From the NCBI GenBank assembly GCA_905178155.1, contig CAJINV010000005.1, positions 1,514,438 to 1,578,437 of the forward strand: a stretch of DNA of 64,000 bases, in the 5' to 3' direction. Each line of letters starts with the position of its first letter. The stretch's first letter is position 1. Below the pieces are notes generated by a model that saw only the letters and a list, made by a program, of their open reading frames with translations, was not told the DNA's origin and ran no database searches. This document shows positions 5,791-59,450 of the stretch, piece after piece. A program made the translations under genes and the position numbers. This DNA is from Amoebophrya sp. A120. Lineage: Eukaryota > Protista > Dinoflagellata.

Positions 5791-6252
5791 AATTTGAGGC
5801 ACGATATTAGGTAGGGTAGGAAGAACGTGGAATGAAGGACAATCAAAACACAAAACCTCAATCAAATATTCAAATCTTAAGTTCTAGTTCTTCGTGGTCA
5901 GAACTCGCCGCCAGCGGCCTGCTAGTATTGTAGAATAGGTCGCGCCGTCTCCGTCAGCGTCACAAAAACTTCTTACCGAAGTAGCGATGGATCTTTTTCC
6001 TCACCTTGACCCTCGTCCTGCGAGCAGGAGGAAGATAAAGGAAGACAACCAAATCAAAAAGTCAGATCGAATCAAATCTCGTTCGATCGATCACATTTGT
6101 TCGTTTTTTCCGTTTATGAGGGTCTAGTATGCGGCGAAAAAAAGTTGCCTCTACTTCTGTAGCAATCGCCATGAACAACACCAGCCACCCCTCGTCTTTA
6201 GTCTTGTCGATAAGCCGTCCTGTCCATGATGAAACATGCACAGAGACTGCTT

Positions 6253-10987: not shown

Positions 10988-12806
10988 TTTCGGAGTTTTT
11001 TGGTTTTCAGAGTGGAAGATGGAAGAGATAGAGAAACAGATCGCACGAGGACCCTAGGTACTTAACTTTCCTCAAGGGCAGGTGAGTGCTGCGCACCAGT
11101 CACTTTATGCCAATACTATCTATGTAAGTATACCACCAGCTTCTGGGCGTACGTGGTGAAACAACACAAAAAAAAAAGGCTGCGCGATTTTTTTTGTCAA
11201 AGATACGACCTTTTGTGATATCAGAGTACTTTTGTGAGGCTGAGAGCTAATGTCCTACGATAACGATGATAACACTGCATCTGCATTACGAAAAAAACGA
11301 GTTGGGTTGTGGTGGATACCAATGCAAGGGTCAATTTTCGTGCTAACTCACGTAGCTTTCCTATGGCCTATCTTCCCGGGCCCTGTAGTAGTTTCACGAG
11401 TTGCAACTACTTTTCTTTTTGATGACAGTTTTTCCTTTTATTGCAAAGCCACACATGTTATTTCTGCAGGCTGCTCCTTTATGTCGCCTAATAAATTCCT
11501 GCTTTGTATTTCATTTTTTCCCCCACCCGGATGCAGATGATCATGAGTGCTTCGATTCGTCCCCCCAGAAATGTTGAGCTTGAGCATGACGCACGACCCA
11601 CAGGAAATAAGTATGCAAAAAAAGCGATCCTTGTGCTGCTGCACCGATGACAGATCTTGACCGATGAAGATTCAAATCTACGAAGGATCCTTCCTCCTGC
11701 GGGTTGTAGCTAAAAGAGCAGAAAAATGAACAAAAGACAAAGCTCAAGCGAGTTTTAGGCCAAGTAGAGCAGAGCTTCACCAGACCGGGACCGCTTCAAG
11801 TTCAACCAAAACCATGTTTTTTACTTTCTTTATTCCTTTGTGTACATTGATAGAAAATAATAAAGCTTGTATGGATTCTTACGAAGCATTAACACGATGC
11901 ATTTTGAAAATTTTCTTGGGCGGTGAACAAAAATCTTACAGGCGGACGATCACGATGCAAAAACTTCATATAAAATGAGGTCGAAGACGAAATATCCTTT
12001 AGAAAAATGCCGGTTCTCAAAATGAGACTCACATTCTTCAGGTTTTTGCTTTTCTCGGTTTCTTGCTCTAATGCCTAGGCAGACAGAAAAATCCTATGAT
12101 TGCTTGACTCTTTACGTTTCGGTCACTATTTTGCTTGTGCGATTGCTTGAAGATGAAAAAAAATCTCTTGCTGCATACTAACAAATGAAAATTTTTGAAA
12201 TGAAAATCCGTGGCATAGTAGTACTCAGGAAGCTGTAGGAGCTGTTTCATCTGCGAAGAAATTTTCTTTATCTTACAAATTATTCGAGATGAATCTGAAT
12301 CAGATTCAGGGCTGTAACTGAAAATCAACGGTGCTACTGCTACGGCAAGCAGTTTTTTGCAACACTTCCACTACTTGTATGAAAATCAAAATCAAAATCA
12401 AACGAGTTGTGCTTGGTCCTTTCTGCAAAAGGCAGAAAGGCCGGCGTTGAGTTGTTGTATCTACATCATGTTCGAGAAAAACAAAGCTTCTAGAACCTTT
12501 ATCAGGCTTCGGCTTGTGAGTTGTATTTCTGAAAAAAGTTTCACGGAAATTGTTATGGTACACATGTCCGGGTTTTCATCTGCTTGAATGGAATAGAAAA
12601 AAAATGAAATCGAAATTATGGCATTAATTTGTGTGAGCTGCCTGAAAATCAATTTGTCCTTGAAAATAAACGTCTGGTAATTTCTGAGCAGAAGTAGTAC
12701 ACCGTCACGAAGACCGTACCAGAATGTCGGTTTTGCTGTGAAAATTCTGGACAAAGGTTCTCGTGTAGCGCGCTTTCAGATGAAGTAGCAATTATGCTTT
12801 AGTCCT

Positions 12807-15800
12807 TCATGTTCCTTTCCCTCCTTGCTTTCCGCTCCAGCCAGTGGTCTGGTCGAAAAGACCCCAGGAGCTATCTCCTCCTTTAGGTGGGCCTTTCCCC
12901 TTACCTCCAGTGAGTCCTGCTCCCAAGCCGGTCTGGTTGTCGAAGAGACTCCACGATACCTGATTCGGGTCAAACAAACTCGTTGACGTGACGTCTGCAC
13001 CATCCCAGGAACTCTGATCTTTGCCACCCGTGGGGCTCTGGTATCGGGGTGCCGAGGCTACTTGCCGCGGATCGTACTGCGGCGCGGCTACTTGTTGACT
13101 CTTTCCACCTGCTCCGGGAGCTGGACTTTGGAGGCGATTCTGGCCTTTGTTGAGACCACCACCAGCATCAACGGGACTGTTGTAGCGAAGCATCCAGGAA
13201 CTATCGGCTCCCGGAGCGGCGCCGCCACCGTCTTTCACGTATCACGCGGAAACTTTCTGCCACCATCAGGACCAAGTTTCGACATCAGTTCTTCAGATGA
13301 GAGGAGTAATCAATGCGGTTGGGGTTGCCTCATGACAATTCAGTTTCATCAGCCGCTCGTTGTCTCCTTCTGCACTCAAGAGCGGCCGGACTCGTAGTTG
13401 CTTCATGCAAGACAAAAGGCGACGTGTAAGATATCTTCATCTACTTATTTGTAGAGAATGCAAATTTATTCATTTTTACCGACAGGTAGGTGAAGGGCAA
13501 AAGTTTTCTCACATGGGATAAAAATGGGTTCAGGCTCCCCTTATTTCCGAATGGATTCAGGCCGCCCCACCCCTTATCAAAGGGTTTTTTCGTATCCACG
13601 CCCCCTCCAGGCATCGCAGGTTTCAAGGAGCCCATAGTAGCTGGTTTCCCACCCATTGCTGGCGGCTTCCCACCACCCACCGCGACTGGGGTCACGGGTG
13701 CAATGTCTGGCTTGCCGATCGGCGCAAACTCAGGCTTCCCCATCTGACCGAAGGCCGGTTTGAACGATCCCGGCATGGCCGGCTTCAGCGAGCCGGGCTT
13801 TCCTGCGCTGCTACTTGTTCCCCCAGCGATATTCTCCACGGCCCCGCCGCCAAGGAGCCAGCCGTCTTCCAACCCGGTGTCGGTCCAGCTCCAGTCGTGT
13901 TCCGGTGCGGGGGGCTGCTCGGGTAGTTGTTGAGCGGGGGGGAGTTGATGCTTCATCGGCTTGTTGGGGTCCCGTTCCGCGCGTTTTGTTTTTACCACGA
14001 CCTCGTGTTCCGGGGGCTTTTCCTCCTCCTGGTGTTCTTCTTCGGCGGGCCACGGTTCCTCTTCCTCGGGCCACGGCTCCTCTGTCTCGGGCCACTGCTC
14101 TTCTTCCTTGGGCCCCGGCTTCTCTGTCTCGGGCCACGGCTCTTCTTCCTCGGGCCACGGCTCCTCTTCCTCGGGCCAATCTTCATCTTCCTCCTCTGGA
14201 ATCTCCTCGATGTAGTCATCTTCTTGGCTATGCACTACAAATTTACTGGCGCCACTGTAGCTGTACGCAAGTACTTACTACAGGCACTGGCACACGTAAG
14301 TATTAAGCTAGCACACCGAAATAAGCATAAATGTAAATCTACAATGAACATTTTGGTACCGGCAGCTGCCTAAAGCGGCCGAGCAAGCGACGCAGATGCT
14401 TGTCACTGGTAAGGCAGCTCCTGATTGAGCAACGTTAACATGCATTTTTTCCACTTTTTTTGTATGTGCAGGCACTGGCACACACAGTGGCGCTGGCAAA
14501 TTTTCATCTTTGGATAAGGATAGTCCTCCTCTTCGGGATATGAAATGCAACAGCATCGTACTAGTATAAATCGCATGACAAATTCCCTCAGCATGAAAAA
14601 TGGAATTTGTAATGCGGATTTAGGTTAAGGTGGAGATTTGTAATGCATGATTGCGATTACTACGAGCACGATACTTTTGCACAGGATACGGGAATCTCTT
14701 CGATCCAGTCGTCCCACTCCTGTTGCTATCAAATGTAAAAATGTCTGGGTCTGGAAGAATACAACTTGTGATGCTGCATTTGGGTTCCAAAAAAATCTGT
14801 ATTGCATGAGTACCAAAGGGAATGCAATTTTTGCTACGCGGAGAGGGCGTTTGTCATGCGGAATAGGCATCAAGAAGCTCTCAAAAAATCTGTGATGCCA
14901 GGGCATGCATCACAGACACCAGGGCTCATGCAAAACGTGCATGACAAGTGTCAGAATCTTCCAGCCCAGACATTTTTACATTTGATAGTTGCCGCCGCCT
15001 TTTCTCGGCCTCTTCTGCCTCCCGCTTCTTTCGGTCGATTTCTTCCTGCAGTTTTCGCTGCCGCTCCTGCTCGTCGAGCTCTTCCGCCTCGCGCCGCAGC
15101 CGCATCTCCTCCTCCCACGCAAGGCGCTGCGCCTCCTTCTGCCGCTCGAATTCCGCCGCCTCCCGGTCCCGCGCCTTTTGCGCAAGCTCGTGCTGCCGCC
15201 GGAGTCTTTGCTCCTGCTTCATGGCACGCCGCTGGGCGAGGGTTTCCCGGAGCCGCTGCTCCCGCAGCCAGCGCTCTTGCTCGGCCTCCTGCTTTTTTCG
15301 CCATTCCTCGGTTTCCTCCTCCCGAGACCGGGTCACAATCAGCTCCAGTCGCTTCCGTTTCCGGTCTTCTTTCCGCCACTTGCGCTCCTGCTCGGCCAGC
15401 GCGCGGCGGCGCTCAAATTCCAACCTCCGCTTTTCTTCCTCCATCAGCAGCCGGTACTGCTCGCGTTCGTCCTCCCGGGCCTTGTCACTAAGCTCCAGTT
15501 GCCGTTTGCGCAACACCTCCTCCTTCCTTCTTTTCCGCTCCTCCGCGGCCTTCTGCCGCCGTTCCTCGGTTTCTAGCTGCAGTCTCTCCTGTATCCACAG
15601 TAAATTTCCCGTACACGACGTACAAATGCAGAAGTCTCTGCATGACAAAATTGGGCCTCGATCCTAGTTTAGCATGATAAGTGTTCTTACACTCCAAATT
15701 GAAGAAATTTGTGATGCATCTTGTACATGTACGGAAAATTCGTATTGCATATCCTGTTCCATGTGCAACCGCCAGTTTTCCTGCTCTTTCCGTCTTGCCT

Positions 15801-36800: not shown

Positions 36801-39800
36801 AGATGTTCCTCCACCTCCTGAGTAGTTCTTGTCCACACCAACAGCAGAAGCAAGTTCTGCTAAAACATCCTCCTCGTCAACCTCAGTCACCCGCCCCGGC
36901 CAGTCTTCGATGTCCTCCAGAATTACCGGGATATCGATGATATCGTCCGGATCCATCACCGACACCAAGCACTCGACCTGGAGACCCGTTTCTTCCTGCT
37001 TCACGGTCGTGACTCGATACTCCCTCATGATTTCTCCGTCGTCGTCGAAAACCTTAGGTGGTTCTTCGTCCTCGTCGTCCACAACAGCGGCGACTAACTC
37101 CGGAAGGTCCTCTACCACACTGGCTTTCAGCAAAACATTCGCGCTCCATTCGGACAGCCTTTCTACGTTTTCCGGGTCTTGTACGAACGACTTCCGGTCC
37201 TCCGGATCAAGTTGCTCGACAACCGAAACCACGGATTCCAACCAGTCAGACAATCGTTTCGAGGCGCGGGCTTCGAAATTTTTCTCACTGTCGACGCCGT
37301 CGATCATGGATTTCATTCGGGACTCGATCTGGAGTTCAATTTTTTCCGGCGGCGGTGGAGGTGCTGGTTGGGAAATCCTCAAAGATTCCAGTTGTTCCTC
37401 CGAAATTTGCGACTCTTCAAAACTCAACCGATTTTCCAGATAGTCCACGATTGCGGTTTGTAAAACCTGCTTCTCCTCCGCGGTCGGCTCAGACAAAGAG
37501 ACAGACCTGGATTTTTTATTTCTATCCTTCAATCCGCTTTTGTAGCGCCGGCGCATCCGCTCCTCCAGAGTGGATCTCTTGTTTTTCGCAGGGGCCAGGA
37601 TCTTCGTCGCCCGGGGGACAAGGACGTCCAGGCCGGTTTGCAGCAGCTCTGGCTCCTTTTTCTCTTCTCTTACCGTTACAACCTCTAGTGCCTATCCAGG
37701 AAAAAACACCCATCCACATCCAATTTGTCATGCAAAACATGCATAAAATCCACTTATTTTTCATGCAAAAAATGGATGGGGATGGGTCTTTTTTCCTGGA
37801 TAGTGCCGGCGCTGGTACGATTGCTGCCAGCCGCTCCAGTCTTTCCACGTCAATTTTCGTTGCAGACGATCTGATGAATTCCGGCACAACGATAGAGCAT
37901 TTTGCAGTCGCGTTTGATGTCGTCTTCTTGGAGGCAATTTTTCCACTTGTAGTTCCATCGGCATCGTCCAAAATGACGAATAGGAAATCACCGTTGCAGA
38001 TAGGCAGCTTCTCCCCGTTGGAACTCAAAACGGAGGGAAAAAGATCGCCTTTCAGTTGCACCAGTTCGTCTTCGGTGACAAACCTGCTTTCTCTACTCGG
38101 CTGGTTCACCAGAATCCGGTTTGCGGCAAGCTCAGACCGCGTGATGTCGCCAGGGATAGCTCTAGAAGCTATGTTGATGTGTGGTCTTGATGCCGCGCCG
38201 AATGTGCTATCCGTATCTTCTCGCACAGCTGCTGCACCGGCGGAGCTCGACTTTGTAATTATAGCGGGTGTCGAAGAGAAGGACGCAGTCGTACCAGGGT
38301 TTTTACCACCAGCAACTTCTGGCGATGTTGAGGACATTGTGGCTGCGGCGTTGCAGGGCAGCAAGTGGAACGAGTCGTCTGAAATTCCCTTCACCTGCAT
38401 TTCCGCGACTCCAAAAACCTGAGTTGCGGTGGAGGACGTCCTGCGTACCAAACCAACCGACCCGTCGCACTGCCGAACTAAAACCTGATCGCCGACAGAT
38501 TCGAGTTTCAAATCCAGGCAAACTCCCGTCTCCGGATTCAAAATCGAAAAAGCGGCGGTTGCCTCGTCGATCTTGTGGTGCTCTAAATGCCCGGCATCGA
38601 CTGCGGGAATGATGTCGCCGTTGAGAATCGGGGTGCGGTTTTTGAAATCTAGTTTCGCTGCGCGATAGGACGCCGCCGATCCCCCTTCGTCACCCCCAAA
38701 GCCTTGGTAGCAAAACGGGAAAAGCACCTCGCCCGTTGTGGTGCTGCGAAAAACCCGGTCGCCAAGAGAGACTGGAGCCGTGAGGCCGTCCTTGGTCGTG
38801 ATGAAAAGAGAAGGCTCGGCTTTACCAGTACTTGATGTCGGGCTAGCAACGTTCATATTGCCGCGACTACGGTCTTGTCTCTCGCTGCTCTTAACAGGCT
38901 TGTACACCAATGCGTTCTGCGCCAGCAAGTCCAAATCATGGTCCAAAAATTCCTTCACGTCTGTGCAGTAGGTCTGAAAGTCCTTTTCCAAAGCGTGCGG
39001 CACGGGAAATTTTTCGCTTTTGAACTGCTCTTGGAGGTACAGAAGGGCTTTAACTCGGCACTTCTCGTCGTCCGTTGTTTCAATTGAGTTGTCCATGCGG
39101 CCGGCGGAAATCGCAGTCGAGCTGCGTGAGCTCAACGCCAAAGCCTCGGCGCGAAGGTTGTTCTTTTGTTGATTCAAATCTTCATCAACTTCCAAATCTT
39201 CTCTTGCACTTGCCCGAATACCGAGATTATCCGCAAACGCACTCTTCGCATTACCACTCGCCAAGTTATGGTCGTGGGGTACCGCCCGGGTGATGTAGGA
39301 CGACGGGTTCATATTGTTTTTCGACATTCTACTACTTCCTGGCAGCTTCTGCGGTCTCTTCGATTTCTCGACAACTTCTTCCCGCACGACAGTTGCTGTC
39401 CCCTGTCTCGCGTCGATAAACAACAACACGTATCCTGTGCAAAAGTATCGCACTCGTACTAATTGCAGATATGCATGACAAATCCAACTTTCTACCTGAA
39501 ACAGCATCACAAGTTGCATTTTTGTTCTTGGGAAAATTTGTAATGCAATTTATACTAGTACGATACTTTTGCAATGCATAACACGCCATGAAAGCTGACA
39601 ACTTGGTCGTGGGTGATTGTTCTCCATTTGTACTCGGTTTCGTCTTCGTAAACAACTTTCCAGATATTATTTGCTGATGAAAGACCAGCAGTAGAAACAA
39701 GCAACGCCAGATCCGTCACTTCCCGGACAATCCTATTTGCGCTGCTCGGCCGGAAGTTCAGTGATTTCGTGATCGCTAAGTCCGGCAAAGAACCGATGTA

Positions 39801-42800
39801 CTCCCCGTCTGTCTTCCTCCCAAAGAATCGCCCACCCTCGTGTTTCAAGGGAAGCGTTTCTACCGCTTTTGCAAACTGCTGCACCGTCAAAACGGTCAAA
39901 TTGGAATTCACGTCCTTCAACACCGCATTGACATGACTCCGCTTCCTCGACACTTCCAAAATTAACAACTCCGTCCTGTGTGCGCGCAGGGCGTGTTTTT
40001 CTGCCGCTGCCTGGAATAGGGCCAAAACAGCTCTTTCGCCTGCAGCTCTTCTGCTTGAAAATCTCTTCGTGTTTCGACCCTTCTCGATGTCCGCGAGGCG
40101 TAGCGAGTTGTGGTGTGAAGATGAAGCAGGTTCTTTACTCGATGTACTAGTTGCATCAGTCCCCTTGCTTGCAACTGCTATCCCTGCGTCCTTCAAAGCC
40201 AGTAGCCGCAGGCCATACTTCCTTGAACTCCGCGCCCTACTTCGCCGGATGGTCTCGTTTAGGCTTTCCAGAAACCAGGCGCCATCCTTGACGCCTTTGG
40301 ACAAGACCGTGCCCTCCGGCAAGTTGCGGAAGATGTCGCCGTTTTTGTCGACCAAGCAGACCGAGCCGTCTGCTTGCTGGATATTACAGTGAAAAGTGCC
40401 CCCCACCCCCAAAGTTGCAAAAATTTGTGATGCGAAGCTTCCAAATGAAAACCTTTTGTCATGCATGAAAGGAGTATGAATCTTTTTGATGCAGAGTCTA
40501 GTCGTGTTTCGCATCGCTTGCATGACAAGCGCCGCTCTTGCTGGGATCTTTTGCAATACAAATTGTTGCTATTCACGATCGGAAATCTGTGATGCTGATA
40601 CATGCAAGAGGGGGAGTGTTTCATTTGGAAAGGTTTGCAATACAAATGCTTTCAAGTTCGGGGGTGGGGGCATTTTTCATTGTAATACTGGAGCACCTGG
40701 TTTCTCTCCAGCGGTTTCACTTCGCCGAGCCGCGTTTCGATGACGTATTTCGACTTGTTTTTGGTCTTCTCATCGTCGTACACGTTGTTCAGAATGTTCC
40801 CGAGCAGGACCCTTTCCGCGAGCCCGTTCTCCAAAGATTGCAGGATGAAAGTCCCGTCTTGCAGTCGCCTCAGGGTGGTCTTCGTGACTTTGTCCTCTTC
40901 GATCTCCTTGTCGGTGAGCAGAAAATCGTTTTGTTCAGCCAAAAGTAAATCCGCTGTGTCTCGGGTTCTGTAGGTCAGTGCGTCCAGCAGCGTGCGGCTT
41001 CTGGTAGGGTCAAAATGATGATCTTGGTTCATCTGTTCAGTCGAAGATAAAGATGTTGAGAAGGAACCACCTCCAAAGTCCAAACAACGAATGCTGTTTC
41101 CAACGATGTTCAAAAACCTCGCATGCAGCGCGACGTTTTTTACCCAGCGCTTCACGGCCCGGCGTTCAGTATCCGTTCCGGTCAACAGCACCTGCTCGCT
41201 GAACACCCCCGAGCGAAGGTATTGGGGTAAGACCACCCCGCTATCCGTTCCCCCACGGCGCAATACCCAGTCCCCGGGCAACGCCGGGACCAAAATCCCC
41301 GACCGGAGCGCGTAGGCCGCCCCGTTGCCGTCGGGAAGAAGGATCAATTCGTCGCATTGTCTCACCGGACGGGTGAGGCCTCTGGCGTCCTCTAACAGGA
41401 GTTCGATCCTGCCACTCGATTTCGGGTTGAACTTCGGCTTCGCGTATCGCACGCGTTTAACCGCTCCGGTGAAGCAGCTGATCGTGACAAGGGAGCCGTC
41501 CGCGCGCTTCACGAGCTGCTCCTCCGAAAGAGGGACGAAATTCACGAAGTCCGTAACCCCGGTGACAGTGATAGCAGACGACTTCGTCCGCCGCAGCGCA
41601 GCCTTGGTTTCATGTTCATCCCCTTCATCGCTCCCGTCCATGAGGGTTGAGGTTCTTTCTTGTTCAACTGCAACACTAGAGTTCTTGTCAACTCGCCGGA
41701 GGTCCACCTCTCCCTCTTTCCGCTCCACGAGCACCAAGGTTCCGTTACTCTGGCGCACGAAAAAATCTTGAAATTTCGTGTCATGCTCCCGCGCATCAGT
41801 GACCAGATCCATCACCGACATCTGCAGACTCCCCCGCGTGTTCACCACGATCATGTCGAAGGCGTGGACGTTTGATATTTCATCCGCTTGCTTTCTACTC
41901 ACCGTCGAAACCGAACTCTTCAAATCCGGGCTCAGCACCGGGATCAGGTCCGCTTCGCTTTTCGGCAGAAGCAAGTTTTCGAACAACTCGCTTTCCGCAC
42001 GGAGCGGGAAGTAGTTCACATCCAGGTTTCCGTAGAAATTTCGGAATTCCCGGATTCGGTTGAACATGGAGACAAAACACGTGTCCGCGTTCGCGGTGTA
42101 CTCAAACGGGAACACGATAGAATCGTCCGATTTCCGGCGGAATATCCAGGAAAAAAGCTGTGTTAGTGTAAGTCCTTTGGGAAAAGAACAGCATCACAAG
42201 TCTGTCTGCCATGACAGGAAAAACTTGTTATGCGCACATAGCTAGGAAGGGAAAACAAATAGGAAGCGAGCCGATCATGCATGTCGAGCATGACAAGTGT
42301 AGCTGTTTTGCAATTTCTGCATCACAGATTTACACTTAGACTTACACAATTAATTTTTTTCTTGCATACGGAAAACGCGAGCGTTATTATTTGGAACACA
42401 AACCGCGTACCCACGAGGCGAGATGACGGAGATTTGCCCGGTCAACGCGTTCTGGACCAGCAGGGACTGGTAGATTGGCGTGGTCAACGCGTTCTCGGGG
42501 AAAAGCAGCTGATATCTACTCGTGCCGGCAGCGGAATTGCTCCGATACGGCAGGCGCTGAATGATTGCGCGGGGAATTATCCTTTTTCGCGATGAAGAGG
42601 TCGTGCGACGAGGAGGATCAGACGAAACCAACTCTGGAGAAGATACAGCAACGTCGGCTCCTGCGCCGACAGGAACGGCTTCCGCAAGGTTGTTGCTTCC
42701 ATCAACTACCACCGTTTCCTCCTGCACCTCGACCACGGTTTGCAATCGCACGTCGACGAAAAACAGACGACCCGTGTATTCGCTTTCGACGATTTCGCTA

Positions 42801-45800
42801 TGGATGAAGGGCATGGAGATGTTGTGCTCGTTGATCGGTTCATCTTCGCGTTCGTTTTTTTTCTTCTCTGATTCCCGTTGCTCCTTTCTCGGCACGAAAG
42901 CCAAAACCCCCTCGGACAGGCAAACTCTCCCCACTCGCAACGTCGTCAGCTCCCCACAGTAGGGATTGAACCCTGGGTGCATCGGCGCTGTCAGAAAATC
43001 CGACAGCAAAACCTCCAATTCCGGCGCCTCGGCGCTCTTGAAAACCCGGTCGTGGACACTCGCACGCGCTAACTCGACAGAAATACGAGTGGAAGTGGAA
43101 GTCGGAAAACCTCTGGTCAGTTTTTCTTCCTCTACTTCTTCTTCTGTATCGACCGGAGCTTCCACTGATTGGACGGAGTCCATGTGCAGATCAGTAGCCT
43201 GCTCGAGGAGCTCTTCCAGCTCTTCTGTGAGTCTGGTTTGCTGTCTTTCTTTGGGTAGTTTTTTGTCCTTCGCGCGTCTTGTCATGGCTTTTCTTTCCAA
43301 CAGCCGCGCACCGCGCAGGATTAGGGTTTGGGACAGCCGCTGGTGAGCGGGTATCGGCTCAACGACAGCCGCAGCAGCGGCGTCATCACCCAATGTCACC
43401 CGAATTGTTTTCTTCTCCTTGAAATCACCGTCTAAGTCATCTTCATCATGCGCCGTTATTTCATCTTCCGGATCTTCTGCAAGAGCAGGCACTTGCTCCG
43501 CCCCGGTGCTAGTAAGTTTTTTCCGCTGTAAAAGAGCAGACCGACGGCGCAGTCTGTTACTCGCGTCGTCTAGCATTTGCACAGCGGAATCCAAGTAAAC
43601 CTTTCGCACGAGCGCGGATTGCCGTTCCTCTTTCGGTTTGAGACTTTCCCGGATGGCACTGTGTCGTTTTTTCTCCTCGGTCACCGCTTCGACAAAGGTT
43701 TCCCTAACGATAGAATCTTCTTCGCTTGTTTTCAGCTCCTGCGCCAAATCCTCCGCTCCAAGGAGAAAAAGTGTGCGGGAAACTAGTTCGGATTGCCGCT
43801 CGCTCGGTAACCGAATAGCATCTTCGTCCACATTTATGTCCTCATCCCCGACAAAAGCTAGCAGATCCTGCGACGGCGGCATTTCGATCCCGAGACTGTC
43901 TTCGATTTCTTTTCTGATGCTTTCCTCCGCGGCATCCAGCTTTTCGTGCCTCAGTTGCAAATCCCGGTACCCCTGTTTGTACAGTCTGCGCATGATCCGC
44001 TCGTGCACGCTGTCGAACCGGTGCACGGAACTTTTCTTCGACGAGGCCAAACTCCGGGATTTCACCGCCAGCACCTGAAACTCGATCTCGCTCAACCGCA
44101 AGCTGGACTGTCTCGCGGACTCTATTTTGTCTTGTTCATCCCCGGGGAACATCATGGAGCTGGCTCTGGTGCTTCTAGGTTGAAGTTGTTCCATCTGTTC
44201 CTCTGTGTTGAAATCAGACGCGAAAGACAAGTCGACCTCAGAAACGATCTCGGAGGCGAGTTTCCGCAGGTAAATCTTCCCCGCGATGCTGGGCAACGCG
44301 TACTTTTCGTGCTCCATCTCGCTCGTCAAAAGGTGCTCGAAGTCCAAGGGCGGAATGGACGGGACTGCAGATGCTTTGAAGACCAGGCTATCCGTTCTAG
44401 AACCGCCGCTCTCGCGAATGTAATCTTCATCCTCCCGGCCCCCGCCGTCCTGCAAAGCCGGCGAAACGCGGATGGCGCCGGACACTTGTCTGTTCTGACT
44501 GTGCCTGCTGCTGATCCGCCCCTTGGAAACCAAACCCGTTTCGCCGGAAGGTAGTTTCTGCACTTCCGTCACGTCGATTGACTGTAATTTTTCAAAGTGG
44601 ATCAATGGTTTCCAGGCAGAAACGTGGATTTCTTCTGACGTCGTCTTCCGTGCTGGTGGAACTTGCTGGCCTGCTACTTCTTCGGACGAAGCATCTGTGT
44701 GGTCATGTTCTGTGCTGGTTGTCTCCCGGTCTGAATCAAATTCTCGAATCCAGGAAGCCAAATTCCTCGTCGACCGGCCCTGGTCGTCTGTGACGGAAGT
44801 ATTCCCTGAAAATTAGCCATCCCCATCCACTTTTTGCATGAGAAATACAGAAGCTCATACAAGTTTTGCATGACAAATAATTGGATGGGGATGCTTAATA
44901 ATTTTCAGGGGATAGGAAGAATGCGCGTCTACCACCGAGCTACGGATAAAGTCGATCAGCTCCATAGTTGGTCGGTAGTTCTCTGGCAGTTCTTTATTTT
45001 CCTTCTCGTTGTTATTTAGACTTTCGAGCATGTCCTTCACGATCGAGGTGACAAAATCCCGGATCCACGCGGCCAGCTGCTTGTCCGCCTCGGAAGTTAA
45101 TGACAGTCTTTCTCTGTCTGTTAACACGGGTCCGCTGGTGCCTTCATTTCTTATCCTTTGTCTCTCCAGTTCCGCTTGCAGTTCTAAATTTCTCAACGCG
45201 TCGAAAACAATGACCTTGTCGATCACGAAGTCGGACGGCTGCAGCTCATCCCGCACGATCATCCTCATCATCTTCCCCGGATCCCTTTCGGTTTCGATGT
45301 TCCGCCGGACCACTTTTTTCACCAGATCCCGACCCCAGTTCGCGAGCCAGAGGTCGTTCACTTCCATCAAATATCAAATGTAAAAATGTCTGGGTCTGGA
45401 AGAATGCAACTTGTGATGCTGAATTTGGATTCCAAAAAAATCTATATTGCATGAGCAGCAAAGGGAATGCAATTTTTGCTACGCGTAGAGGGCATTTGTC
45501 ATGCGGAATAGGCATCGCGAAGCCCTCAAAAAATCTGTTATGCTAGGGCATGCATCACAGACATCATGGCCAATGCAAAACATGCATGACAAGTCTCAGA
45601 ATCTTCCAGACCCAGACATTTTTACATTTGATATCAAATTCTTCAACAGAGTTTCGGGGTCCACGTCGGTAGCCAGGAGAAGCTCGGACAGAGTCCGCTG
45701 TAAGCTATGCTCCAGATTCTCGTCCCGAGCGAGAAGCCAATCAAACGCTGTTTTCTCAACGAGATCGACTTTGTCTTTGACGGCTTTCTCGAGAATCTTC

Positions 45801-48800
45801 GTGTACCCCGCTCGGGACCGCCGGACTTTTTGCTTTTCCTCCAGAAGTGCCGAGGCGCGGACCGCGGAGATAGTCCTCGGTTGCTTCATCTCGGCGCACC
45901 GCAGGAACTTCGGGATCACGAGGGAACGGTCAGTGAGTTTTCGGTACACCCAGTCTCCGTGGCGGGCGGGTGCGGTTTCCTGGGATTTGGGGAAGACAAA
46001 CACCAGCTGGTTCGCCATGCCGCTTCCAACAGGCTGTGCAAGAACTCCGTTAGTGGAAGTTGTATTTCTGTTTGGGTTCTTGTTGATGACGCCTCCGGCG
46101 CCTGTTCTCGGCAAATCGCTCGACAACCAGACGAGAGTGGGCGTTGTCAAAACGATCCGGGTTTTCAGGGAACCATTCTCAACAGCGCTCGTCCTTCTAT
46201 CCGTGTAATTACTCATGGCCGTCGCCACACCCGCACCTCCGTGCAGAAGATGTCTTCTGTTCTTCATCTGCGCGGTCCGATCCGGCGGAGTGAGAATCGC
46301 TGTTTTGGTGTTCGGACGGAAAGAGATAGCGCCACGCAGAATTGGTGTCCTAATCCCGGTTCGGGTCACTAACGCGGGCGCTTGCCCCTCGTAAAACAGG
46401 ATTTGCTCCTCGATTAGCGGCGAAATGCGGCTTCCTTGGTCCCACACCGCAAAAATGCTGCCGTCGGACTGCCGCAAGATCTTCGGAGTATCCGTCGCTG
46501 AGTTGGGCTGCGCCTTCGTCTTTTGGCTGTGCAGATTTCGGATGTGCATGTTGTAGTAGAAATTGCAAGTACTGCTACCGTCGGAAGCTACTTTCTTGTC
46601 CGAGCCTTTACCGGCGACTTCGGCGTCGAGATCTGCTGCCTCTTGTCCTGCTCCTGCAGCACCGCTGTTCATTGCTAAAGTAGCTCTACCTGCAGCTGCT
46701 TCCTCCACGTCATCAGCTTTGTTCCAATCCACCTGTCGCAGAAACCGGAGCCACGCGTCCATTTTGGCTACAGCAGCGGTGTGGTCCCTGCTTTCTTCTG
46801 TGTCATCTTCGGTTGGCGTCCTATCAAAATTTTCCATCACCACAAGGTCACCTTCGGAAACAGTCGCTGCGCCGCGGAAATAGAGTGGAGCGGACATTAA
46901 CGCGTTGCGTGTGCTGCTATTCAGCAGGGCTGTCGTCGCAATGACTGACTTTCCTCCACCCTTCTGCACCACGACACTTTTCCCAGCACCAGCACCACCT
47001 CCACCAAGACCCCTTCCTTTGGCAGCACTTTTCAAATTCGGCGCCACTGGTCGGAACATCACCTTTGGCGCTGAGTAATCGTAAGGGAACAGCGGGATCC
47101 GCGCATTTTCCTCATTCTCAACAAAGTACACGTAGTCTCCGTCGTGCAGGGATGCCGTCACACCCGAGGGCAGAACCATACCGACCCAGTCATCGGCCTC
47201 TCTGGTGCACAAAACCGCATCGACAACCGGGGTGGAGTTGCCGCTCGGACCAATGAGACCAACGCCGGTTTGATTTTTCAGAAGGAGAAAACGGTCGACG
47301 ACCTGTAGTTTAGAATTTTGTGGTGCATTTTTCGTTTAACGTAAGCGAGGGGGCCGGGGCAGACGAGCAAGAACATATTAAAAGAATCGCATTTCGTTGT
47401 TGTCGCAAATGAAGATGAAAGATACTCTAGACCAACTGCCTAGCAACTGCAACGCCGGAGGAGGAAAACACATTCACATGATCGGACCAGCTCCTACAAA
47501 AACTCGAAGACAAAGTAGATGTAGATGCAGTGACAAGCAGTGTTCGCGGATGTTGAAAATAAATATAAATTTTCATTTTGATCGTAGTACTACTTCTAGC
47601 TTTTTTAGTACGTACCGGAATCACGGTCTCCACCCCCGTTTTTTCGTTTCTCGTCATTTTCCGCATGTTCAACATTTTTCCCGCCCCCGCTACCACCGCA
47701 TGATCCGCCTTCCTCGAAACGATCCTTTCCGCGTGGACTTTTTTGATTTCGTTTTTCCAGTTCAGATAGATCAGCTGCCCGGAGGCACGCCGCAGCAGCT
47801 GGTTCCTGGCAACATCAATTGGAAGGACGTCCCCCGTCTGCAGGTCGACAATCGAAATTTTCGTCTCCAGCGTCTCGGTATCGATGACTTCCTCGATTAC
47901 GTCCGCGTCGCGAATGGAAATCTCCGCGGACAGCGGTCGAAAAACGAGGTTGTCGAGCTGGGAAGCGAGCCTTTCTTCGTCCTGAATACTCCCGGGTTGA
48001 AACTCAAAAGCGTGGCGCAGGAGGTTGTTCTTTGTCGGTTTCGAATTGGACAAAATTGTGCTGCTAGAAATTTGTTTGTCGTCAGACTGCTTGCTTTGGC
48101 TTTCCCGCTGGAACAAATCTGGCATGACCACTTTCACCGTGGTTCTCCGGCCCTCTTCGTCCCGTTCTTCGAGAATGTCCTCGATTTTCGCGGCTAAAGT
48201 CTTCTGTTCATGTTCCGCCCTCACCTCGGTGTCTGTACTGTAACCGTCGTCGTGAAGATCTTGATCTTCACGACCTGCTTCTTCGTTGACACCTGAGGCG
48301 GAGGACGATAATTTCTCTTGCTCCTTCGGTCCTCTGACGTTCACGAACATATCACTAGACTTTGCGAAAACTTTCAAACTGCAGCCGACATTCAACGGGC
48401 GAGAAACCGCTCCACCAGCGCCAACGGCAAACGCACAAAATTTATCGCGTTTCGTGCTCCTTCGGTTTTTTTTGTCAGCATTATTTTCCAGCAGTTTCCT
48501 TCCGCCAAGGACGATCTGCGCAATGTCCGTGTTCTCGTCGTCCCCTACCGTTTCTTTGTCCATCATGAAGACGCAAGACAGCAGACTGCTCCCACTCACG
48601 CCGCTGTTCCACAGCTGCTTGCGCTGTTTCCGCAGCATCCTTGCCCCGTCCGTTACGTCCCCGATCGGCCAGAAGAGACCGGTTGCTTTGTGGATCAGAA
48701 GCAAAGCCGAATTGGACGAAACGAGGAGGAAATCCTGTTGCTTCTGCAGCTTCTCCTCCGGGGAGGCGAAGACCGCGTCGGTGGTCGTTAAAAGCTGCTC

Positions 48801-51338
48801 CGGAATCGCGACCTGCTCGGTGAATCGACCTTGGTCTTCTAGATCTATTTGATCGACGTTGTCGTCCCCGTCTAGCGCGAGCATCTGCTCCCAGGTAAGC
48901 AGTTCCGGAGCTTGCAAATCCAGCTCCAGCCGATTGCCGACCGGAAGCTCACTGTCCTCGCAGTTCGGTCCGGCGGATTGTGATTGATTGTTTTTTGTTC
49001 CACCGTCCAGAAGTCTCGCTCTGTCGCTTGCCGTTTCATCAAACTCAAAAACGGTCTGAAAAACCCTCTCCGCTTCGAGCTCCTCAAGGCGGTACACCTT
49101 GCTGTTCCCCCCGACTTTAAAAGGGGTGTCCAGGGGCAGCCCGCGCTCCAAGTGCCACTTCGCCACTTGGCGGATCGAAAACGGCCCGCGCCATCTGTTC
49201 CCGAATTTGAACCGCAGCTGGAGAGACCAGATTATCGCCGGCCGCCACTTGGGAGGTTGCCGGCTGCGGTGATGAGGTTGACGCTCGCCCTCGTCCTTTA
49301 ATTGATGTTCGTCTCCTATAGAAGTAGAACTTTGATCGACTTCGCTGCTTGTGCCGCTAGTACTAGCGCTTGTCTCCGTCGCGCTCGCATCATCCAGGCC
49401 ACCAATCTTAGGCGTGCTGGCATCGTCACCATCATGAGACGCTTGCTTCCATCTGGTCTCCAAGAAAAACGGGCTCCATCGTCTCACCGCCAACTGGGCA
49501 CTGCTCCTGGCGTTGTTGCCCACATGGTCTTCAACATCGCTTAAGAACCCGACCGCCCAATTGTTGTCTACCTGGCACAACTGGAAGACCAAGTTGCTTC
49601 TCGGGTGTTTTGCGAGGAAAACTCGTCTCGAGTTTTGTGGATTGTTTGCACTTGTTCCGCTCTTGTCCTCTTCCACTATCATCACGTCCCCGCGTCGGGA
49701 CCCCACCTCCGCGGTCCAAACGCCAGTCAGGGACAGAAATTTCGCAAACTTCTGATCCGCCAAAGATTCCTGTTTCTTTTCTGGAAAGAGCAGCAACTGG
49801 GGCGGCATCTTGTACAGAAAGTTTTTCTGCAGGTACTTCTGGGGCGAATAGGTTTTCTTGATTTCCAAACCGTATTTCTTCTGAACATCTTCAAAATCCG
49901 TCATCATCCGAGAGGTGAAATCGACCGTATTTAGCGATGGAGAGGCTCTACTTGTGCGGGCCGGGGGTTGAAATCGCGTTGCCCGAGCTGGCTGACCTTC
50001 GTTGCCCTCGCTTTCATCCGGGGCCGCGAAGCTCACGTGAACGGTGCGGGTCGAGCCAAGTTCCCGCTGTCCATCAGGATAATGATCTTCACCAGGAAGA
50101 ACATCACCATTCACATTCTCGATATCGGCTTCATCATCGTCCTCATTATCGTCTACATCTTCTCGAGCCAGATCCTCCCAGATGCGTAGCGGCACGTTGG
50201 TACTATGGACACTAGGCGTGGTCGCAGCTTCGCCAAACCCGATATCCACGCTTGTTCCAAGCAGCTGTTGCAGCGCCGCGTGTCTCCTTCCGGGACTTCC
50301 ACTTCCGCTCCGGGTCGCAATCGGCATGCTCCAGGGGGTCGCTTTTGGGTTGAACACGGTCTGCTTCCGCGTGTATACGAAATTTTCGGTCGTGCTCGTC
50401 TTGTTCGTGCGCGACGAAAACGAATTTCGTCCGTCCGCGGAGTTGTAGCCGCGAGTAGAGCTACCAGGTGGAACGATTAGCAAAAATACCTTGTCCCACT
50501 GCGGCCACACGTCGCGGATGCAGTAGTCTCCGCTAGACAAATGCCCGAGTCGAATCATGGAGCGGGAGTGCAGCTGGCTCTCTGTCCCGGTACCCTCCTC
50601 GTACTTCGCCCGCATCTCGCTGAGCGTGAAGGGCCCGCGCTCCTCCTCGTCCTTGTCATCGTTCCAGCGGTAGAACCAATTCTGCTGGATCAACTTCACG
50701 AGGTTTTCCAACTTGTCATCCGTGACAAGTGTAACCGTATTTGAAGTTCTTGTTCCACCCGGTCGTGCTCCTGTCGTCGGGGAGAAAGATGAGGAAGAGG
50801 ATGATGATGCTGTAGTGCCTCTGCCCGTGGATGAGGATCTTGCAGTGTTGTAGTCCGCTTGTGTTTTTACATGAACCTCCAATAGCGGTAACTTCAGGCC
50901 CGGGGGTGCCGGCCTACCTGAAGAACTTCTGGCCGCCCTGGTCGTTGCTGGAGGACCCGTTCGGCCGTCATTCTCCTGCTCTCCGCCGGCGAGAAAATTT
51001 TCAACTTCGGCGTCGAAGTCATCCTGATCCTCTGGCCCGACATTATCCACCAGCGGTGGACGACCATCTGTCTCCTCATCAACGACCGCAGAAGCAGTTC
51101 CACGACCCCCTACTCTCCTGATAACTTGTTCCGGTTGCCAGTAGTGCTTCGCGGGGAAATAGGGTCCATGCGCAAAGGGCGAGATCGGAGTGGTGTGGGG
51201 GAGCCTCGCCTTTTTCAACCAGTGCGAAAGCTCTTTGCTGGTGCACGGCCCATAGTAAAGCCCGTCCGGAGCCAGGTAATACCAAGTTTTGCGCTCCTCG
51301 GGAGCGACTGCACCAGCAGAAAGAACAGGGGACGACAT
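12807..51338 (-). CDS. Giant ~10,981-aa protein: 3 GYF-like domains, RxxDG beta-repeat region, acidic tracts, long charged helical region, WPE repeats, Gly/Pro/NPF tail; 26 exons
   Basis: All 25 junctions were checked and are frame-compatible after removing 23 introners (+5 bp each) and GT-AG introns 47303-47615 and 20265-20520. 38532-5586=32946 nt = 10982 codons. The two most 3' junctions (14229, 13240) have degenerate TSDs and are less certain. Confidence 0.8.
13240..13520. mobile_element. Degenerate introner
   Basis: tatcacgcggaaactttctgcc / ggcaaaagttttctcacatgggata; flanks tcacg/aaaat no longer match, but phase is compatible with +5 removal. Confidence 0.6.
14043..14179 (-). repeat. 21-bp tandem repeat encoding WPEEEEP-type heptapeptides
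   Basis: Repeated tcttcctcgggccacggctc units; protein DWPEEEEPWPEEEEPWPETEKPGPKEEEQWPETEEPWPEEEEPWPAEEE. Confidence 0.9.
14229..14516. mobile_element. Introner (singleton, degenerate TSD)
   Basis: tatgcactacaaatttactggcgccactgt / acagtggcgctggcaaattttcatctttggata; flanks ttggc/aggat; phase-compatible. Confidence 0.7.
14539..14688. mobile_element. Introner family D (inverted relative to the 36117 copy)
   Basis: Right end gcgattactacgagcacgatacttttgcacaggata is the reverse complement (one mismatch) of the 36117 left end; TSD cggga. Confidence 0.9.
14727..14987. mobile_element. Introner family A
   Basis: tatcaaatgtaaaaatgtctgggtctggaaga / tcttccagcccagacatttttacatttgata; TSD gttgc; close match to the 45372 copy. 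Confidence 0.95.
15592..15751. mobile_element. Introner family E
   Basis: tatccacagtaaatttcccgtaca / tgtacggaaaattcgtattgcata; TSD tcctg. Confidence 0.9.
16756..17062. mobile_element. Introner family F (degenerate)
   Basis: Starts tatgcaacacaaatgacc, ends gggcata; flanks tgccg/tctcg; frame restored (LAR/EKEIE or LAR/QKEIE). Confidence 0.7.
17180..17990 (-). repeat. ~153-bp (51-55 aa) tandem coding repeat, about 5 units
   Basis: ttccgccatgcg recurs at 17293, 17455, 17608, 17761; unit ELAHEERMAE..AKQRSKSEKQHQLAEEARKREDLERQQQLLLEQKQKER. Confidence 0.9.
18877..19137. mobile_element. Introner family F
   Basis: tatgcaacacaaatcgaccgga / tccggtagattctctgccgacgata; flanks cggtt/cgttt; frame restored (LEK/RKEAK). 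Confidence 0.75.
20265..20520 (-). other. Canonical GT-AG intron of the giant gene
   Basis: GAG|GTACTT...TTTTCTCTCCCCGCAG|GAC joins RQE to DLRKKQEE in frame. Confidence 0.85.
20758..21036. mobile_element. Introner (singleton)
   Basis: tatcccgagtaaaaacgtacccacgccagagt / actctggtgtgggtatgtttttactcaggata; flanks tacgc/ttcgc. Confidence 0.9.
21075..21336. mobile_element. Introner family A
   Basis: tatcaaatgcaaaagtgtctgggtctggaa / ttccagacccagacatttttgcatttgata; TSD gcgag. Confidence 0.95.
23327..23600. mobile_element. Introner with family A termini and divergent interior
   Basis: tatcaaatgcaaatatgtctgggtc / gacccagacatatttgcattcgata; flanks agtcg/actcg. Confidence 0.9.
25021..25208. mobile_element. 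Introner family E
   Basis: tatccacaggaagtttctcgtaca / tgtacgggaaacttgtattgcata; flanks cctca/cctcg. Confidence 0.9.
27710..27818. mobile_element. Introner family B
   Basis: tattccctgaaaattaaccatccccatcca / tggatggggatgggtaattttcagggaata; TSD ccatg. Confidence 0.95.
30921..31032. mobile_element. Introner family B
   Basis: tatcccctgaaaattaaccatccccatcca / tggatggggatggttaattttcagggaata; TSD caggc. Confidence 0.95.
31142..31315. mobile_element. Introner family D
   Basis: tatgaacaacaaaagtaacgcac / gtacgatgcttttgcggtggata; TSD tctgc. Confidence 0.85.
32680..32862. mobile_element. Introner family D
   Basis: tatgcattgcaaaagtatcgcactcgta / tactagtacgttgcttttgcatttcata; TSD cgact. Confidence 0.9.
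34191..34497. mobile_element. Introner family C
   Basis: tatggatgtgtcagagttgaaatcgacaaagttgaaat / atttcaactctgacgatttcaaacctgacgcttccata; flanks gcttg/gctcg. Confidence 0.92.
36117..36253. mobile_element. Introner family D
   Basis: tatcctgtgcaaaagtatcgta / tacgatacttttgcattgcata; TSD acttt. Confidence 0.92.
37693..37802. mobile_element. Introner family B variant
   Basis: tatccaggaaaaaacacccatccacatcca / tggatggggatgggtcttttttcctggata; TSD gtgcc. Confidence 0.92.
39431..39580. mobile_element. Introner family D
   Basis: tatcctgtgcaaaagtatcgcactcgta / tactagtacgatacttttgcaatgcata; TSD acacg. Confidence 0.92.
40382..40687. mobile_element. Introner (singleton)
   Basis: tattacagtgaaaagtgccccccacccc / ggggtgggggcatttttcattgtaata; TSD ctgga. 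Confidence 0.92.
42143..42368. mobile_element. Introner (singleton)
   Basis: tatccaggaaaaaagctgtgttagtgtaagtc / gacttacacaattaattttttcttgcata; TSD cggaa. Confidence 0.88.
44800..44914. mobile_element. Introner family B
   Basis: tattccctgaaaattagccatccccatcca / tggatggggatgcttaataattttcaggggata; TSD ggaag. Confidence 0.93.
45372..45633. mobile_element. Introner family A
   Basis: Perfect long TIR tatcaaatgtaaaaatgtctgggtctggaaga / tcttccagacccagacatttttacatttgata; TSD tcaaa. Confidence 0.95.
47303..47615 (-). other. Canonical GT-AG intron (first intron of the giant gene)
   Basis: CCG|GTACGT...AACTACAG|GTC joins VIP to VVDRFLLLKNQTG, which continues into ORF 45596..47212. Confidence 0.8.
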
Positions 51339-59446: not shown

Positions 59447-59450
59447 TTTT
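58873..59450. repeat. 125-bp direct repeat pair (58873-58997 and 59326-59450)
   Basis: aaaatcaaaatgtggagaaaaaatgtttctcc...ctacgtgattagtgatttt occurs twice, with one mismatch noted. Confidence 0.92.

Follow-up and report, generated by a model that had tools for sequence, protein, structure and literature searches.

The question raised by this locus is whether the frames running on the minus strand from 51338 to 12807 of the window (the whole stretch of 64,000 nt of Amoebophrya A120 DNA that was analysed) belong to one gene and what such a gene would encode. Removal of 23 TAT…ATA elements, each together with 5 nt, and of two GT-AG introns joins 26 exons into 32,946 nt, i.e. 10,981 codons and a stop, without any internal stop. 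In this way, the coordinates, the number of exons, the 32,946 nt and the product of ~10,981 aa given by the first-pass annotation were all reproduced. Its statement that every junction reads through held in five of six cut registers, while the sixth, in which all 5 nt are taken from the downstream side, creates a TAA at junction 25; read-through at all junctions thus needs the register seen in RNA. It is very probable that the 26 exons constitute one giant gene. Its features are:

47616..51338, minus: exon 1, aa 1-1241, start codon ATG at 51338; its three GYF-like modules are set in disordered linkers
51129..51299, minus: GYF-like module 1, aa 14-70; Pfam GYF E 3.5e-5, 23.8 bits alone
50514..50687, minus: GYF-like module 2, aa 218-275; Pfam GYF E 8.8e-5, 22.6 bits alone
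49059..49241, minus: GYF-like module 3, aa 700-760; alone, no Pfam match; GPF-x4-V-x2-W motif
47615-47303, minus: J1, GT-AG intron ending exon 1; GTA donor and CAG acceptor in the sequence
45635..47302, minus: exon 2, aa 1242-1797; two beta-modules
45633-45372, minus: J2, introner; perfect 5-nt direct repeat
44916..45367, minus: exon 3, in frame
44914-44800, minus: J3, introner; perfect direct repeat
42370..44795, minus: exon 4, in frame
42368-42143, minus: J4, introner; unseeded beta-module match across it, ~9 bits, decoys <0
40689..42138, minus: exon 5, in frame
40687-40382, minus: J5, introner; joined sequence aligns with uninterrupted beta-module, E 8.8e-5
39582..40377, minus: exon 6, in frame
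39580-39431, minus: J6, introner; perfect direct repeat
37804..39426, minus: exon 7; one partial beta-module
37802-37693, minus: J7, introner; perfect direct repeat
36255..37688, minus: exon 8, in frame
36253-36117, minus: J8, introner; perfect direct repeat
34499..36112, minus: exon 9; one beta-module
34497-34191, minus: J9, introner; direct repeat with one mismatch
32864..34186, minus: exon 10; one beta-module
32862-32680, minus: J10, introner; missing from L001, exact empty site
31317..32675, minus: exon 11; two beta-modules
31315-31142, minus: J11, introner; missing from L001
31034..31137, minus: exon 12, in frame
31032-30921, minus: J12, introner; missing from L001, where a private element sits a few codons upstream
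27820..30916, minus: exon 13, aa 5991-7023; several beta-modules; homologue of A25 CAD7940805.1
27818-27710, minus: J13, introner; missing from L001
25210..27705, minus: exon 14; helical, acidic
25208-25021, minus: J14, introner; common to L001
23602..25016, minus: exon 15, in frame
23600-23327, minus: J15, introner; common to L001
21338..23322, minus: exon 16; long acidic tract, then onset of the charged helix
14693..21647, minus: proline-free charged helix, aa 8886-10598, exons 16-23
21336-21075, minus: J16, introner; missing from L001
21038..21070, minus: exon 17, 33 nt
21036-20758, minus: J17, introner; missing from L001
20521..20753, minus: exon 18, in frame
20520-20265, minus: J18, GT-AG intron; identical position in L001
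19139..20264, minus: exon 19, in frame
19137-18877, minus: J19, introner; common to L001
17064..18872, minus: exon 20; 51-55-aa HEERM-type repeats
17062-16756, minus: J20, introner placed by eye; direct repeat with two mismatches
15753..16751, minus: exon 21, in frame
15751-15592, minus: J21, introner; perfect direct repeat
14989..15587, minus: exon 22, in frame
14987-14727, minus: J22, introner; perfect direct repeat; 92% identity to the J2 element
14690..14722, minus: exon 23, 33 nt
14688-14539, minus: J23, introner; spliced in X7 RNA contig
14518..14534, minus: exon 24, 17 nt; in X7 contig between 14224 and 14689
14516-14229, minus: J24, element without direct repeat
13522..14224, minus: exon 25; acidic WPE repeats followed by a tail rich in G/K/P that carries two NPF
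13520-13240, minus: J25, element without direct repeat; joint 13235|13522 in X7 and X9
12807..13235, minus: exon 26; G/S/K tail, S/G-W motifs; stop TGA 12807-12809

All 23 introner junctions are open when the element and 2, 5 or 8 additional nt are removed, none with the other six offsets. Modulo 3, the removed lengths leave 0 in 10, 1 in 4 and 2 in 9 cases, so the frame match does not simply follow from lengths divisible by three. A frame-blind scan, scoring only the terminal inverted repeat (TIR) and the direct repeat of TAT..ATA elements, picked 20 of the 23 (TIR score 16-56), a set whose frame match has a chance probability of (1/3)^20, ~3e-10. It missed junctions 20, 24 and 25, whose arms are decayed and which were placed by eye, and, within the limits of the gene, called three spurious elements of low score (TIR 14-15, with 2-3 of 5 direct-repeat positions matching). 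Intron retention leads to a stop inside the intron in 24 of 25 cases. The GTA/CAG ends of J1 resemble three of four RNA-verified GT-AG introns of the neighbouring gene region; repeat similarity across J1 is weak (E 0.004). As the ATG at 51338 is preceded by AG, a further 5′ exon is possible. The window contains no tRNA or Rfam families.

RNA contigs of one sample splice junctions 23-25 as predicted, each run giving a single contig of low depth (2-5) for each joint. Spliced removal from RNA was thereby seen for three of 23 introners in the gene and for both of two in the neighbouring gene. Raw RNA runs X4-X6 touch only introner sequence, neither exons nor neighbouring genes, and are therefore uninformative on the gene; in run X3, coverage piled up on introners, besides short fragments that were unspliced, and none of the runs searched matched 42000-51400. 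In the related genome L001, six of the nine introners of the overlap are absent, leaving exact empty sites, while four others, following the same insertion rule, are private to L001, which indicates recent insertion. The overlap comprises 4,570 codons without a stop, and 54 of 56 indels are multiples of three. Between A120 and L001, dN/dS is 0.20 over 4,326 codons and 0.09-0.36 in all eight bins, the most constrained being aa 8850-9450 (0.09); the L001 sequence stops before the tail and the 5′ half lies outside this comparison. Judging from these alignments, the frame is under purifying selection over the stretch comparable with L001. Altogether, nine of the 25 junctions have direct outside support, the relative has four others in an identical frame, and 12 (junctions 1-9 and 20-22) are read from the sequence alone. 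Hence, the proposal of one giant gene is well supported by the frame, by RNA at the 3′ joints and by the L001 empty sites, but at those 12 junctions it is carried by sequence. A single transcript from the 26 exons is likely; no single read or contig covers the full length. That the gene is hidden, as had also been proposed, is only partly true: the Amoebophrya genomes were annotated with a pipeline that draws on transcripts and was designed for non-canonical introns (PMC7789003), but the Amoebophrya A25 homologue of exon 13 (CAD7940805.1) is filed as a partial protein of 751 aa. Nor is the size a record, as annotated Amoebophrya exons of 44,016 and 79,744 bp exist (PMC7789003, Table 1).

The intron class itself has already been published for Amoebophrya (Farhat et al. 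2021, PMC7789003), with "tens of introns in a single gene" (PMC12130899). The elements of the gene possess terminal inverted repeats starting with TAT and, save J24 and J25, direct repeats of the 3-5-nt kind at their boundaries (15 perfect, five with one mismatch, one with two, two with four, the latter J24 and J25). Among the 27 elements of the window, 19 BLASTN pairs are 71-92% identical, 14 of the gene's 23 elements occur in a listed pair, and one family sits in both orientations within one frame. J24 and J25 lack the direct repeat, yet the cuts fall 1 nt ahead of TAT and 4 nt past ATA; their whole-element folding energy is unremarkable (z -0.87, -0.99) though their ends pair. Insertion of these non-autonomous TAT...ATA elements duplicates 5 nt of the target, as the empty sites show, and removal from the RNA by cuts at -1/+4 deletes one copy and restores the frame. 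Such cutting was shown at three junctions, with the register fixed at two, and is presumed for the rest.

The architecture described in the first-pass annotation was recovered in full: three GYF-like modules (two by Pfam, the third by alignment and model), beta-repeats, acidic tracts, a helix exceeding 1,500 aa, WPE repeats and a G/P tail. With Pfam GYF (PF02213; cut-off 25.7), the complete exon 1 scores 36.5 bits, single modules staying below the cut-off. The tripeptide ending the GYF signature (PMC10187677) is absent, the modules ending with ARL, GTG and RGL, and module 2 also lacks the signature W. Module 3 was modelled as beta-beta-alpha-beta, in the stretch predicted best within a low-confidence model of the N-terminus, for which Foldseek listed GYF-domain rows (probability 0.66-0.90, E 0.29-1.0, residue range not given); no match of this model in the fold searches reached E<=0.001 or Z>=5. 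Exon 1 found no match in the PDB sequence search nor, a weak negative, among proteins of 2,173-5,000 aa in the word-indexed search, and its unspliced ORF has no exact copy in the protein collection searched. A link through GYF to Kelch13-compartment proteins was dropped because "GYF" is absent from the main text of PMC10718435.

Exons 2 to 13 contain at least ten copies of a 65-aa beta-module without family match, which is more conserved towards L001 than its surroundings (97.2% of 469 versus 91.7% of 1,280 residues). The model of one copy (mean pLDDT 63.7) shows five short strands, with a best Z of 2.8 (rmsd 3.8, 56 aligned); none of its fold-search matches attained E<=0.001 or Z>=5, and PDB sequence searches gave only E 0.2 or worse. 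A Tudor/SH3-like fold (rows at E 0.14 or worse) was not accepted, nor was Tcp10_C (17.6 bits against a cut-off of 36, one 13-residue stretch). In the word-indexed protein search (<=5,000 aa) the module profile matched P0001 alone, a weak negative, and in the Atlas exon 11 had no usable match and the leads for exon 13 remained under 0.9. Within these searches, which stop at 5,000 aa, the protein sequence appears restricted to Amoebophrya.

The charged helix (1,713 aa proline-free, 1,434 aa of them also glycine-free) is predicted to be helical, with 46-56% E+R+K and a net charge of +15 to +32 per 500 aa. In none of its three parts (aa 8886-10590) did a hydrophobic period exceed the shuffle maximum, and a canonical coiled coil was rejected for want of a heptad period. 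A charge period of 8.4-8.8 exceeded the shuffles in two parts; the third, aa 8886-9450, is the most conserved. The Pfam scan of 22 exon products detected no enzyme families, Sfi1-type patterns have no match in the protein, and neither a hydrophobic N-terminus nor a transmembrane-like stretch was found (best 19-residue hydropathy 1.53).

The protein itself is undescribed, the literature search having found no title on such a protein. From its sequence, the product has about an even chance of being a 1.24-MDa intracellular non-enzymatic tether, probably for the cytoskeleton (flagellar apparatus or cortex); if one gene is granted, a cytoskeletal tether is slightly favoured. Three GYF-like and at least ten beta-hairpin modules on flexible linkers would form a multivalent docking arm of ~6,500 aa, the acidic tracts may serve as spacers, and the 1,700-aa charged helix without coiled-coil seam could be a long springy single helix of at most ~255 nm (0.15 nm per residue). 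Being mildly basic, it might run along a microtubule, to which a single alpha-helix can bind directly (INCENP, PMC4571873), and the W/F-motif tail may bind a second set of partners. The cytoskeletal or cortical scaffold suggested initially fits the composition, but no cytoskeletal family was matched, and the motifs of the tail suit endocytic or RNA-granule proteins no less than cytoskeletal ones. Only tentatively can a bolder proposal be made, namely a titin-class, Amoebophrya-specific single-chain ruler of 1.2 MDa with a new beta-module family and an exceptionally long single alpha-helix, encoded by a gene whose introns would be cut by measuring from paired TAT/ATA ends, no direct repeat or fixed orientation being needed.

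The last 400 aa hold both NPF of the protein, two of its four WxxF and its sole WxxWxE. WxxF is known as an adaptor-ear ligand. The product of the giant gene might thus be a scaffold of endocytic sites (micropores), whose tail binds EH domains and adaptor ears through NPF and WxxF/WxxW while the helix spans the pellicle collar. Dinoflagellates have micropores and K13, and NPF-EH binding has been invoked there (PMC10105704). Of the shuffled 281-aa tails, 0.055% contain two NPF, but the motifs were chosen post hoc and local duplications (LNPF twice in 13 aa) overstate this value; WxxF reaches only 2.6%, and DPF or DPW is lacking in the protein. L001, ending before the tail, does not address conservation of the motifs, and exon 26 had no homologue among 250-2,000-aa proteins in the word-indexed search, a weak negative. 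This function is regarded as unlikely.

Of the nine W in the tail, eight come directly after G or S (0.01% of shuffles), and the tryptophan motifs of TNRC6/GW182 offer themselves for comparison. A scaffold of mRNP granules, in which the GYF-like modules bind PPG-phi proteins, is therefore to be considered, albeit as a rather improbable product of the one gene. The best PDB matches of the GYF profile are GIGYF1, CD2BP2 and GIGYF2 (E 5e-5 to 2e-4), the C-terminal sequence of GIGYF2 is Glu- and Gln-rich (PMC12249416), and the linker joining modules 1 and 2 contains PPGL (aa 145), which fits the GYF ligand consensus (PMC10187677). However, the GYF tripeptide is missing from all three modules, the Pfam scan revealed no RNA-binding domain, and this function gives no place to the 1,700-aa helix and 6,000 aa of beta-modules.

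The frame could also yield more than one transcript, or be the ancestral form of several, split for instance at J1 or at internal spliced-leader/poly(A) sites. J1-J9 and J20-J22 are without RNA, X7 depth is zero at 16009-17342 and 18677-19343, exon 1 could stop on its own 62 codons into J1, and the A25 piece is annotated as partial. However, exons abut the elements, so that none of the junctions has room for UTRs or an intergenic spacer; exon 2 has its first Met 42 residues in, within a beta-module, and exons 6, 12, 17, 23 and 24 have none. A depth drop away from the 3′ end would be expected of a long, weakly expressed poly(A) RNA. Genomic spliced-leader relics or 12-A runs do not occur on the minus strand, a search that does not bear on trans-splicing. 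Several transcripts are thus quite improbable. Inert or host-directed filler (secreted or surface, or relaxed low-complexity sequence) would suit a mostly low-complexity protein found only in Amoebophrya, but it is highly improbable given the missing hydrophobic N-terminus and membrane segment and the dN/dS values of all eight bins.

The locus shows the scale of protein that non-canonical introns of Amoebophrya conceal, as the product needs all 25 cuts to succeed, and insertion sites vary between close relatives (10 in 16 kb) while the protein holds at 94.5% identity. It is a test bed for the removal of these introns, offering exact cuts without repeats, both orientations, exons of 17 and 33 nt and empty alleles. 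If true, end-measured cutting points to a hairpin-reading splicing activity; U1 snRNA was reported as not found in Amoebophrya (PMC7789003). To the cell biology of this abundant group of marine parasites, the protein adds a beta-module without known family and an exceptionally long charged helix.

With GIGYF1/2, CD2BP2 and Smy2, the protein shares the core W-x-Y...GP[FC]-x4-hydrophobic-x2-W, but its copies number three, lie at the N-terminus and all lack the GYF tripeptide, and their ligands are putative; GIGYF proteins possess a single central GYF domain, preceded by motifs that bind 4EHP and DDX6. They are about eight times shorter. Short beta-strands, DG-type turns and weak Pfam/Atlas leads to Tcp10_C recall the TCP (G-box) domain of CPAP/SAS-4, which, however, consists of ~20 consecutive strands instead of dispersed five/six-strand modules (PMC3776556). 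An alveolate protein with long charged low-complexity sequence is reminiscent of epiplastins/alveolins, but their V/I-flanked acid-base dyad domain is beta/coil (PMC6212826), while the charged region here is predicted helical, proline-free and V/I-poor (each <=2%). The most V/I-rich 200-aa windows contain four to six acid-base dyads; an EKIVEVP-like motif is absent. The helix resembles the single alpha-helix domains of INCENP and myosins in being proline-free and without heptad seam (PMC5812594, PMC4571873); it is E/R/K-rich as well, with a charge period of ~8 in two of its three parts. E/R/K may amount to "up to 80%" in such helices (PMC5812594), more than in the present one, and that of INCENP comprises ~210 aa (residues 503-715; PMC4571873) against 1,713 aa here, where L, A, Q and H are more frequent and 51-55-aa repeats occur in part. 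The introners, finally, agree with those of A120 in their inverted repeats from TAT, short boundary direct repeats, lengths of 110-310 nt, repeated families and the mixture of canonical and non-canonical introns in one gene; what separates them from the main-text description (PMC7789003) is the fixed -1/+4 cut at two elements without direct repeat and, as a second point, the occurrence of one family in both orientations within a frame.

The window holds co-oriented minus-strand eukaryotic genes broken up by 110-310-nt elements with inverted ends. The elements fit the introners described for Amoebophrya A120, which have inverted repeats beginning with TAT (PMC7789003); the intron class is already known, and the elements of the giant gene belong to it. 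The features discussed are:

12807-51338, minus strand: probable giant gene, junctions J1 to J25 (23 introners; J1 and J18 are GT-AG introns)
9093-10990, minus strand: the next gene on the downstream side, split into 7 exons, with 6 of 6 junctions in one contig of RNA run X7
3040-5883, minus strand: gene resembling RAB3GAP2 (match to RAB3GAP2_N of Pfam at E 6.9e-19)
52768-53655, minus strand: upstream ORF, one hydrophobic segment, then a lysine-rich stretch
58014-58062 and 59447-59495: 49-nt repeat pair, 98% identity, 1,433 nt apart, upstream region

Gaps between long minus-strand ORFs were located first, followed by a strand-wide scan for TAT...ATA pairs scored on inverted and direct repeat only. 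The scan recovered 20 of the 23 elements of the final model and made three low-scoring false calls inside the gene span; J20, J24 and J25 were missed and placed by eye. Removal of each element plus 5 nt and of both GT-AG introns yielded one open frame of 10,981 aa whose 26 exons total 32,946 nt, in exact agreement with the first-pass annotation. All 23 introner junctions were open at offsets 2, 5 and 8 and none at the other six offsets. Offset 5 equals the direct-repeat length; the repeats are perfect at 15 elements, contain one mismatch at five and two at one, and are absent at two. Retention would introduce a stop inside the intron in 24 of 25 cases, and the GC content is 54.7% in exons versus 42.2% in introns.

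Runs X4-X6 covered introner sequence alone and were thus uninformative for the giant gene. Single pile-ups in X4 and X6 (20764, 21111-21161, 27739) joined the same introner families to other sequence, i.e., retained or exonic copies from other loci or a related strain. Contigs of X7 and X9, both from one sample, behave as RNA from the window's strain: GT-AG introns are missing from their copies of neighbouring genes, and zero letter differences were seen over 100-780 nt in those exon pieces that were listed. Both runs contained the J25 joint (13235|13522) unambiguously, in one contig each (depth 5.2 and 2.3), and in one X7 contig (depth 3.85) exon 24, 17 nt long, stood between 14224 and 14689, so that removal was exact at J23, J24 and J25. 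Since J24 and J25 lack a direct repeat, the cut register can be read from the RNA there: the cuts fall 1 nt upstream of TAT and 4 nt downstream of ATA. This -1/+4 register may be new; repeat positions are treated in the supplementary figures of PMC7789003. Among the RNA joints listed, two introners of the next gene (214 and 300 nt) were also removed as element plus 5 nt.

The product of this gene (~255 aa) has two PGPGTY repeats, the second being an unbroken copy of the stretch that introner 10268-10060 splits, so that the +5 rule has a control within the gene itself. It matched the SHIPPO repeat weakly (E 0.053, below cut-off) and is possibly a flagellar ODF3-like protein. A GT-AG intron of the RAB3GAP2-like gene is spliced in RNA at 3758|4044. 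The upstream ORF, for which no Pfam family scored above cut-off, apparently encodes a separate single-pass membrane protein.

A related locus in another genome (L001, contig JACKZZ010007441.1, ~93% DNA identity) overlaps J10-J19. Six of the nine introners in the overlap are absent there, missing exactly the element and one repeat copy, which demonstrates a 5-nt duplication at insertion; three introners and the GT-AG intron J18 are common to both loci. Four elements private to L001 interrupt what is exon sequence in the window. Under the same splicing rule, L001 gave 4,570 codons without a stop and 94.5% amino-acid identity; 54 of 56 indels are multiples of three. The dN/dS was 0.20 over 4,326 codons (0.09-0.36 across eight bins), hence purifying selection acts across 40% of the length. 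L001 15006-15922 is an in-frame repeat of part of the predicted helix region (window 19653-18746, with the J19 introner) after window position 18452, either a true tandem expansion or an assembly artefact.

Introners of one family occur in opposite orientations within the single frame, judged by minus-strand BLASTN pairs (44914-44800 versus 31032-30921, 27818-27710 and 37802-37693; 14688-14539 versus 39580-39431, 36253-36117 and 32862-32680), which suggests that removal is independent of orientation. At 6849-7772 the arms of a J16-family introner (6849-7031 and 7699-7772) are apparently separated by unrelated sequence of ~670 nt, and X7 contains a relative of 7040-7432 with 27 differences; one element nested in another, or a single longer one, may account for this.

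Altogether, three junctions are supported by RNA, six by an empty site and four by sharing in frame, leaving twelve (J1-J9, J20-J22) read from sequence; repeat similarity runs across J4 and J5. At junctions other than the three seen in RNA, the elements would be removed likewise. The claim of a single gene is well supported by the frame and by RNA or the relative at 13 of 25 junctions, with no RNA piece running end to end, and it is highly probable that the 26 exons form one transcript. X7 depth is ~3 over exons 25-26 and below 1 or zero at 16009-19343, which no X7 piece spans; several transcripts instead of one are nevertheless unlikely.

The predicted protein (1.24 MDa, pI 5.4) contains a 65-aa beta-rich module recurring from aa 1247 to 6492. 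The last HMM round gave 14 matches, ten in the seed alignment and four unseeded (2.6-8.7 bits versus -0.9 for the best decoy), and self-BLAST supported the module independently and pairwise (E down to 2e-5). Its model (pLDDT 63.7, five strands) found no convincing fold match, and Tcp10_C, the family of the CPAP/SAS-4 TCP domain, was a weak lead only. The modules are more conserved than their flanks in the L001 comparison. Exon 13 (27820-30916), searched against 1.84 billion representatives, matched three proteins: a pair encoded on the L001 contig, and a partial Amoebophrya A25 protein (CAD7940805.1), the only named homologue found, which is collinear with the module region (40% and 52% over two stretches). 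The region aa 7500-8850 is strongly acidic. Beyond it, aa 8886-10598 contain zero proline and 46-56% E+R+K; a heptad signal is lacking, and over the distal two thirds the charges recur with a period of 8.4-8.8. In these properties the region appears to resemble a single alpha-helix more than a coiled coil.

According to PMC4571873, single alpha-helices can bind microtubules. As the helix also holds the most constrained bin and is mildly basic, a cytoskeletal role is the favoured reading, with an even chance of being correct. A multivalent docking arm, acidic spacers, the long charged helix and the motif-bearing tail might together act as a tether. The composition fits the cytoskeletal or cortical scaffold proposed earlier, a conjectural role. 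The tail carries WPE repeats, two NPF, two WxxF and S/G-W motifs, picked after the fact and partly local duplications; a scaffold of endocytic sites is unlikely. GYF in exon 1 was the sole Pfam family above cut-off in the 22 of 26 exon products scanned. The three-module GYF-like profile matched GIGYF1/2 and CD2BP2 structures, and Smy2 weakly, and none of the three modules has the GYF tripeptide; an mRNP-granule scaffold is slightly less likely still. Between GYF-like modules 2 and 3, a low-confidence model predicts an extra small beta-sheet-plus-helix unit (49480-49770, minus strand, aa ~523-620; best Z 4.8 in the fold search). The whole predicted protein has no membrane-like segment, and a filler or secreted protein is very unlikely. 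Literature searches by title found no publication on the giant protein, and the features tested did not fit GIGYF, epiplastin or CPAP. Among known systems, the protein would work like a GYF/single alpha-helix scaffold.
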